DNA of 62,917 bases, the filler included, from Sluysia triapertura (Eukaryota), in the NCBI GenBank assembly GCA_046118255.1. It is 5 parts of 5 records of this genome, joined end to end, with 100 filler letters (N's around TTAATTAATTAA, not from the genome) between each part and the next. Parts side by side here need not be neighbours in the genome. Positions count along the whole stretch, not along the records: positions 39,790 to 51,325 come from JBJNIA010183590.1; 4 more parts are not named here. One strand, given 5' to 3'. The notes under the pieces were generated by a model. The model was not told the DNA's origin and searched no databases. It saw only the letters and a list, made by a program, of their open reading frames with translations. This document shows positions 49,588 to 50,003 of the stretch, in pieces. A program made the translations under genes and the position numbers. The stretch's first letter is position 1. Every line of letters starts with the position of its first letter.

Positions 49588-50003
49588 TTATCTTTGGAAT
49601 TTCTTATATAATCCTGCCTGTTTGTAGAACTTTATCACTTCCCTGAGACGGCGATAATACTTTTGAGATCGCTTCAATCCAGAAGGGAAGTTAGTTGGAG
49701 GAACAACTAGAGTGCTTTGAGATTTTTGTTAAGGTTTTCTGGTGGTATTATTTCTACTTCTTGTACCTCTATACCTCTTTCTAATATGTGAGATGGAATC
49801 TTCTCAAATATGTATTCATAAAGAAAAACTCCCTGACGGAATACATTCATACCTACAAACTGAGTTCTGCAAAGAGGACAATTCGCTGTTTCCTCTACAG
49901 AATGCTTAAACAGTCCTACCATACACTCAAAGTGAGCACGGTGCAATCATTATGTACCTTTTATGTATACTTTTTGACATATGGGGCAACATGTATAAAC
50001 CAT
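49588..50003 (-). pseudogene. Element B accessory gene 1, RING-H2 protein
   Basis: MVYTCCPICQ...HRAHFEC...NCPLCR. ATG preceded by TTTTAG. In-frame stops and a frameshift. Confidence 0.75.

Follow-up and report, generated by a model that had tools for sequence, protein, structure and literature searches.

A broken RING-finger gene in the 3' cassette of a decayed Ty3/gypsy retrotransposon and its putative splice acceptors

We identified two broken copies of a RING-H2-type gene in a 62,917-nt stretch of DNA from Sluysia triapertura (the window, by which we mean the whole stretch analysed). Our preferred reading, which we regard as probable, is that this is an accessory gene in the 3' cassette of a decayed Ty3/gypsy retrotransposon, likely to have encoded a small ubiquitin ligase and likely to have been expressed from a spliced RNA of its own. 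The window is AT-rich (GC 18-33% per 2-kb window) and consists of pieces joined by 100-nt N-spacers at 14582, 28636, 39690 and 51326, each spacer comprising 44 N, a 12-nt TTAA repeat and 44 N. The two copies, A and B, lie on different pieces with N-spacers between them, so they are not necessarily neighbours.

Copy B occupies 49588..50003 on the minus strand (ATG at 50003), and copy A occupies 21271..21691 on the same strand (ATG at 21691; the 3' end is approximate). The initial annotation had described both as reading frames of about 140 codons, but neither is open: copy B has stops at codons 18, 19, 99, 110, 123 and 124, and the ATG frame of copy A ends with a stop at codon 36, the ligand motifs being spread over three frames. 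The CxxC-like, CxHxxH-like and CPLC segments named in that annotation are found in the RING copies. The basic tails that it listed are there by composition, with 12 Lys/Arg in 46 residues for B and 10 in 23 for A, although the tail of B lies in another frame. The eight ligand sites read C, C, stop, H, H, C, C, C in copy B (stop at site 3) and Y, C, C, H, H, F, C, C in copy A (Tyr at site 1, Phe at site 6). The expected full set of eight zinc ligands is thus reduced to seven of eight in B and six of eight in A, and neither copy holds the eight ligands of a RING-H2 (C3H2C3) domain in one polypeptide. Histidine occupies ligand sites 4 and 5 in both (49943 and 49934 in B; 21620 and 21611 in A), and the sites that are lost differ between A and B, the pattern expected of decay. 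The RING-H2 assignment therefore stands as a statement of descent, given the paired histidines, but not as one of an intact domain in either copy.

RING-H2 domains follow the spacing C-x2-C-x(9-39)-C-x(1-3)-H-x(2-3)-H-x2-C-x(4-48)-C-x2-C. The spacing of copy B (x2, x9, x1, x2, x2, x14, x2) fits this pattern, and that of copy A is uncountable across frames. With one mismatch allowed, copy B is the sole match to the pattern in the whole window. The Pfam zf-RING_2 check that had been proposed fell short, copy B (with X at the stops) scoring 18.5 bits (E 0.0025) against a cut-off of 27.3, and the two pieces of the copy A RING matched no Pfam family. As protein, the RING regions of A and B are homologous (the best of 9 frame pairs scores 68, which none of 300 shuffles reached); the N-terminal pair scores 39 (shuffle p 0.02). 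Their GC content is coding-like, at 36-37% versus 14-24% in the flanks. As DNA, their score of 32 is within the shuffle range (maximum 43), and blastn gave no match between the copies. Because no DNA-level similarity remains, we consider A and B to represent old subfamilies and not two recent copies. Judged from these comparisons, the gene is genuine and of RING-H2 type, though decayed, and has persisted in two old subfamilies. The present copies are unable to make the protein, and we infer that the intact ancestor had all eight zinc ligands.

Searches of the PDB with the copy B RING returned the PCGF5 RING as the best match (E 0.0038), and each of the 11 matches with E of 1 or less is named as a RING protein or RING E3. 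In the Atlas, the RING query found RING-family clusters at 0.85-0.87, and its neighbours at 0.85-0.89 are mostly Nucleocytoviricota clusters, scores below 0.9 being leads only. RING domains contact the E2 through a loop-1 Ile, a helix Trp, a loop-2 Pro and the following Arg, and the Trp is usual in the RING-H2 helix. Copy B has the Ile, Pro and Arg and no helix Trp; copy A has the Ile and Pro, with Gly in place of Arg after the last Cys. A RING-H2 domain with Ile, Pro and Arg at the E2-contact sites, as in B, would, from what is known of the family, most likely be a ubiquitin ligase, though the usual Trp is missing.

Alternatively, the Cys/His gene may have encoded a zinc-binding scaffold, a nucleic-acid-binding regulator (Rev-/Tat-like) or a passenger host RING fragment, and not an active ligase. 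We consider this unlikely, as the gene held the same position, its own acceptor and a coding-like GC content in two deeply diverged subfamilies, and copy B kept Ile, Pro and Arg at what we take to be the E2-contact positions. Pulling the other way are the strongly basic tails, the absence of the helix Trp from B and the identity of the best PDB match, the RING of PCGF5 having no ligase activity alone. Inactive cargo is also made plausible by the Ala that stands at the first catalytic Asp of the neighbouring exonuclease-like ORF in both copies. Two other identities were rejected: an IAP, for which Pfam gave no BIR match, and a host RING gene, which does not fit the position of the gene between element genes in a multi-copy family. 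A single-sequence fold of the B RING reached a mean pLDDT of 40 and was unusable.

Word-index protein searches with the B RING returned nothing near its length, and among longer proteins they gave 9 candidates, of which none reached E 0.1. A full HMMER search across 1.84 billion representatives yielded one protein (P0044), a tandem-repeat sequence that we set aside as a chance match, and one match from a viral-contig scan (L001) was rejected as lying antisense within a phage gene; three more viral-contig scans found nothing. The first metagenome scan gave 167 pattern matches, 0 of them confirmed. Among the matches listed, the RING pattern, even with one ligand missing, is absent from 59 fetched loci, including the two relatives described below (L002 and L003), and five long pol relatives have no RING by Pfam. 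On present evidence the RING is specific to this lineage, and its linkage to the element rests on two copies in one genome.

The carrier is best seen around copy A. A decayed pol lies at 24860..26640 on the minus strand, recognised by Pfam and by tblastn with the relatives P0002-P0005; it comprises the RT end, RNase H and integrase, its 5' part being absent. The Pfam matches are RT_RNaseH_2 (E 5e-30), Integrase_H2C2 (E 1e-5) and RVT_1 (E 0.074), and the domains stand in the order RT-RNase H-integrase that defines Ty3/gypsy elements. After the integrase lies a second, decayed retropepsin-like protease (24451..24734, minus strand), detected with a profile that we built from 10 protease domains (iE 4.8e-7 and 6.2e-5) and found at the same position in L003. 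Decayed signal-peptide and transmembrane ORFs with a Pro-rich tail follow at 21922..24130 (minus strand; hydrophobic segments at 24123, 23644, 23194 and 22047). These membrane ORFs of copy A have no convincing Pfam family, and the SBF2 and DUF4097 matches to the low-complexity membrane ORF were rejected as below the cut-off. The RING gene comes next, and then a decayed exonuclease-like ORF of about 300 codons (20047..20960, minus strand), with 30-38% identity to that of B and alignable with the exonuclease of L003. The order on one strand is thus RT end, RNase H, integrase, second protease, membrane ORFs, RING and exonuclease-like ORF.

Copy B repeats the last three of these parts. A membrane-protein ORF with a Pro-rich tail, homologous to that of A by tblastx, lies at 50337..51325 (minus strand) and is cut by the spacer at 51326; the Pro-rich tails of A and B align with a score of 114 (0 of 1,000 shuffles). 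Downstream of the RING, a decayed ORF of exonuclease-like type (ISG20/REX4-type DEDDh) occupies 48435..49412 on the minus strand, identified by comparison with the L002 exonuclease and by a two-sequence profile (iE 1.7e-4). It is followed by a short acidic open stretch with no Pfam family (48076..48372, minus strand). A purine run and then TG at 47311..47322 (minus strand), noted by eye and not listed by a scan for at least 11 purines, could be the start of the 3' LTR of B. Copy B is linked to pol by homology with A only, being cut upstream by the spacer. No gag, env or paired LTRs were found in the window, A being 5'-truncated within the RT and B cut by the spacer, and no long direct repeat was found at the ends. 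Further downstream of the possible purine tract, an ATG-started open frame of 188 codons (46312-46878, minus strand; no Pfam family) could be a further element gene or part of the LTR.

We compared the carrier with its relatives through the copy A integrase, which found 41 proteins; P0002-P0005 stand out, with 49-56% identity over ~79% of the query. In an integrase tree of 32 rows, copy A groups with P0002/P0043, P0003, P0004 and P0005 with support of 98/97; with L002 and L003 added (21 rows), the support of the group is 87/86, or 89/90 without L003. The placement of copy A was not resolved in an RNase H tree of 24 rows. P0043, a 3,735-residue member of the P0002 cluster, encodes a zinc knuckle, a gB-type fusion glycoprotein, protease, RT, RNase H and integrase in one frame. 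The glycoprotein (PF24664) stands upstream of pol in one frame in P0043 (E 1e-91) and in L002 (E 3e-94). The pol of copy A thus groups with GAG-ENV-POL/Burro-like elements in the integrase tree, and on this tree copy A is assigned to the GAG-ENV-POL (Burro-like) group, the env and gag part being missing from the window.

A metagenome scan with the alignment of these relatives (24 of 64 parts) gave at least 58 loci, and among the loci listed only L002 and L003 group with A; they are also the only two of the clade that include the 3' region, ending within about 250 and 660 nt of the last accessory ORF. In L003, integrase, second protease, signal peptide, transmembrane segment and Pro-rich tail share one frame, the same arrangement as in decayed A; in L002, integrase, signal and transmembrane segments are followed by the exonuclease. 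Behind pol, each of the two has a separate exonuclease ORF plus a short orphan ORF. The window tails were not matched by a profile built from the relatives' transmembrane tails, and the Pro-rich resemblance is not counted as homology. Protease domains are repeated in the clade, with one after the integrase in A and L003 (~3560-3840), three pre-RT stretches in L002 and two in P0003. These extra proteases tend to adjoin signal-peptide/transmembrane segments, which would fit a role in releasing membrane proteins from the polyprotein. We also observed PPxY-type motifs in the tails behind the transmembrane segments, PPIY in A (within 22778-23200, minus strand) and PPSY in L003 (~4450-4480), with no exact instance in B; PPxY motifs are binding sites for HECT ligases in viral budding.

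The exonuclease of L002 is recognised by RNase_T (E 1.4e-5) and ISG20L2 (E 2e-8); that of L003 has no Pfam match and aligns with the L002 exonuclease. The exonuclease-like ORFs of the window are homologous to these, B versus L002 scoring 77 and A versus L003 scoring 63, each with 0 of 200 shuffles (among 180 comparisons). The copy A ORF was not found by the two-sequence profile, its second piece gave no BLASTP match to the L002 exonuclease, and an Atlas search with a piece of it was uninformative (best 0.76). Both window ORFs have Ala at the first catalytic Asp, in A as read from its alignment to B, so that neither keeps the complete Asp-and-Glu first motif of DEDDh nucleases; the motif is intact in L002 and L003. 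The window ORF may be a nuclease inherited in a dead state that has retained RNA binding. Since the ORF after the RING is homologous to the exonucleases of L002 and L003, the RING lies between element genes. The earlier description of the gene as element-borne is thus supported, most specifically for copy A, where the RING stands between membrane ORFs after a Ty3/gypsy pol and an exonuclease-like ORF with post-pol homologues in two intact relatives.

The carrier belongs to a multi-copy repeat family, as indicated by the many differing contigs that align with copy B. In run X1, 1,620 contigs align to 3,271 bases of B, covering all 30 bins, although contig depth is not copy number; 90 contigs have 99+% identity, 296 have 95-99%, 595 have 90-95% and 639 have less than 90% (1,234 under 95%). 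An insertion of a DNA virus was considered and rejected, as no such genes are present, the gypsy pol is contiguous with the cassette and the layout is common to intact relatives.

Pfam also recognised animal host genes in the window: a cullin (E 4e-36) and a protein kinase (Pkinase, E 2e-13). The kinase, a fragment resembling a TGF-beta type I receptor, lies at 26541-27137 on the plus strand, opposite to and adjoining the truncated RT of copy A with no LTR between, and may stem from a retrocopy insertion or from rearrangement. At 17279-17398 (minus strand), a 40-residue EF-hand exon has tegumental protein 20.8 kDa as its best PDB match (E 1.4e-5; next match 7.3e-5). We take this protein to be flatworm-specific, and by this match the host of the window is probably a flatworm.

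The initial annotation had placed a pyrimidine-AG just before the ATG of each RING copy, and both are where it put them, on the minus strand: TTTTAG/AAC-ATG in B and TTTTCTTTTCAG/TTAAACA-ATG in A, with gaps of 3 and 7 nt. By sequence, the putative acceptor of B is a T-rich tract ending in TAG (50007..50030, minus strand) and that of A a pyrimidine tract ending in CAG (21699..21720, minus strand). Putative donor-like sites lie upstream of both: GTAAGT at 50140..50145 (minus strand), which would give a 139-nt leader intron in B, and a weaker GTAAG at 21856..21860 (minus strand), which would give one of 162 nt in A. A 3' splice-site sequence before the ATG, as a spliced subgenomic mRNA would have, is therefore present in each copy. 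Counting both strands, the window contains 2,239 ATGs. A YAG precedes 251 of them by 3-7 nt; 49 (2.2%) combine such a YAG with at least 8 pyrimidines in 12, and 17 (0.8%) have TTTT(Y)AG. Both RING ATGs fall in the class of 49, for which the chance is about 5e-4 if the two are independent.

The accessory ORFs of the relatives have the same arrangement. All four in L002 and L003 (10617 and 12241; 5026 and 6709) have a YAG before the first ATG, at 0, 0, 19 and 10 nt, under a test that required an upstream YAG, at least 5 T in 12 and no earlier AG. The background is 46 of 498 and 32 of 316 ATGs (9-10%), giving a joint chance of about 9e-5, a figure that is generous since the thresholds were set post hoc. 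Both L002 accessory ATGs directly follow an AG, as do 6 of the 498 ATGs in L002. AT-rich spacers favour T-tracts, a further caveat on the counts in the relatives. The spacers of the window exonuclease-like ORFs hold acceptor-like AGs too, which were left uncounted since the starts of these ORFs are not assignable. As all four accessory ORFs of the relatives carry an acceptor-like AG, the spliced-mRNA reading gains independent sequence support.

It is conceivable that the RING gene was instead expressed unspliced, from an internal promoter or by re-initiation, and that the pyrimidine-AG is a by-product of AT-rich spacers. The spacers are indeed only 14-24% GC, a YAG of some kind precedes 11% of window ATGs by 3-7 nt, and more acceptor-like AGs occur inside the coding parts of both cassettes. 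However, the same arrangement recurs in two copies without DNA similarity and at four of four unrelated accessory ORFs of two relatives, for which the background was taken from equally AT-rich sequence, and we consider unspliced expression very unlikely. The evidence favours functional acceptors and does not settle between cis- and trans-splicing.

We predict that ribosome scanning would not reach a gene placed after the several-thousand-residue polyprotein and its stop. Each cassette gene would therefore be preceded by an AT-rich spacer with a 3' splice site at its end, and splicing to the acceptor just before each ATG would yield a one-gene mRNA. As to the partner of these acceptors, we lean modestly towards cis-splicing over spliced-leader trans-splicing. 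Donor-like GTAAG sites lie 139-162 nt upstream of both RING acceptors, compared with a background in which 265 of 2,371 window YAGs (11%) have a donor-like site 60-200 nt upstream, and the L002 exonuclease acceptor has three GTAAGT sites 199-306 nt upstream.

The alternative is an operon-like cassette, in which a long transcript would be cut by spliced-leader trans-splicing at each acceptor, with 3' ends at the AATAAA of the spacers. Flatworms trans-splice, and the EF-hand host exon has as its best PDB match (E 1.4e-5) the tegumental 20.8 kDa protein, which we take to be flatworm-specific, but its next match is only five-fold weaker. Also in favour, the acceptors lie 0-19 nt from the ATG in six of six cases. 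All four L002/L003 acceptors have an AATAAA within 400 nt upstream, and the three other than that of the L002 exonuclease have no GTRAG within 300 nt; against this, the two spacers before the RING genes contain no AATAAA. The flatworm spliced leader ends in AUG, and this terminal AUG, if used, would be in frame for B and not for A. A precedent that mixes both modes is the gypsy element Cer1 of C. elegans, which, as described in the covered part of its report, makes a subgenomic mRNA by cis-splicing and SL1 trans-splicing, the spliced mRNA being made with and without SL1 (PMC3315495). Its spliced product shares peptides with Gag (PMC3315495, same part) and, unlike the case proposed here, does not come from a captured 3' gene. 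We regard the operon-like cassette as rather unlikely and retain as preferred the reading of a gene on its own spliced RNA.

Among known systems, the closest comparison is with Burro (GYPSM1), giant gypsy-like LTR retrotransposons of planarians with accessory ORFs and with MATH, BIR, Ubi/SUMO-like and BCL2 cargo, of which decayed copies are reported in Dugesia japonica (PMC6431247, in the portions covered). Compared by that description, the nearest pol relatives P0043 and L002 are Burro-like in that env precedes pol in the same frame, within one long polyprotein (PMC6431247). Membership of Burro proper would call for sequence identity to Burro-1 to -4, a length above 30 kb and the MATH, BIR and BCL2 cargo. 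Absent from the Burro description in those portions are a stand-alone RING-H2 ORF, a post-integrase protease, post-integrase membrane ORFs and an exonuclease; the Burro motif given there as 'AIR1 with RING Zn-finger' we infer to be the Gag zinc knuckles (PMC6431247). GAG-ENV-POL errantiviruses with an HSV/gB-type env are described from Nematoda, Bryozoa and Platyhelminthes, and P0043 and L002 share their ORF order and env class; the main text contains no occurrence of 'ring' or 'splic', and no 3' accessory cassettes were found in the portions covered (PMC13524379).

The Juno and Vesta LTR retrotransposons of bdelloid rotifers have a non-env ORF3, and ORF3s of LTR retrotransposons typically come from spliced messages, according to the part covered of PMC5408684. 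As in the window, their accessory ORFs follow pol and include DEDD exonucleases and small transmembrane proteins; unlike the window, they have one ORF3 and not a gene chain, and their exonucleases are DEDDy and not ISG20/REX4-like (PMC5408684). The main text of that source contains no occurrence of 'ring' or 'ubiquitin' (PMC5408684). Accessory ORFs, exonuclease capture and spliced ORF3s in LTR elements are thus already known. We found no stand-alone RING-H2 gene in a retroelement cassette in the literature covered; Repbase, the primary Burro paper and the PMC13524379 supplement tables lie outside this coverage and could hold one.

Like the nucleocytovirus RING proteins suggested by the Atlas, the predicted product is a small stand-alone RING protein on a mobile genome. 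Small viral RING ligases include herpes ICP0, poxvirus p28 and baculovirus IE2/PE38, and complex vertebrate retroviruses borrow host ubiquitin ligases via accessory proteins. The carrier here, unlike that of the small viral RING ligases, is a retroelement; the Atlas likeness is below 0.9, and no sequence homologue was found. By analogy, the gene would act as accessory E3 genes of viruses do, with expression in the manner of a subgenomic ORF of a retrovirus. In the step that we hold least firmly, the ligase would have marked with ubiquitin some host protein involved in restricting the element or in killing the cell. We tentatively suggest a host restriction or cell-death factor as its target, a guess based on analogy with the ubiquitin/apoptosis cargo of Burro and with small viral RING proteins.

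The gene suggests that these elements bear accessory genes in the style of viruses. If real, the gene broadens the ubiquitin/apoptosis theme of Burro and offers a handle on retroelement restriction in flatworm cells. In planarians, transposon RNA rises upon PIWI knock-down (PMC8532177). The rule of an acceptor before every ATG, seen at six places in four elements, provides exact coordinates for an RNA test of cis- versus leader trans-splicing. The significance is limited by the fact that both RING copies are dead and that spliced accessory ORFs of LTR elements were known already. More speculatively, and in our estimate decidedly unlikely in this full form, giant envelope-bearing gypsy retroviruses of invertebrates might carry an exchangeable 3' chain of genes (RING-H2 ligase, active or dead ISG20-like exonuclease, membrane proteins), each with its acceptor and each expressed as a spliced-leader trans-spliced one-gene mRNA, forming a retroviral operon with a self-encoded E3 aimed at host defence.

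Elsewhere in the window, a 152-codon ORF at 55986-56444 (minus strand), which matched no Pfam family at E 0.1, resembles by eye the restriction-like endonuclease end of an R2-type non-LTR element.
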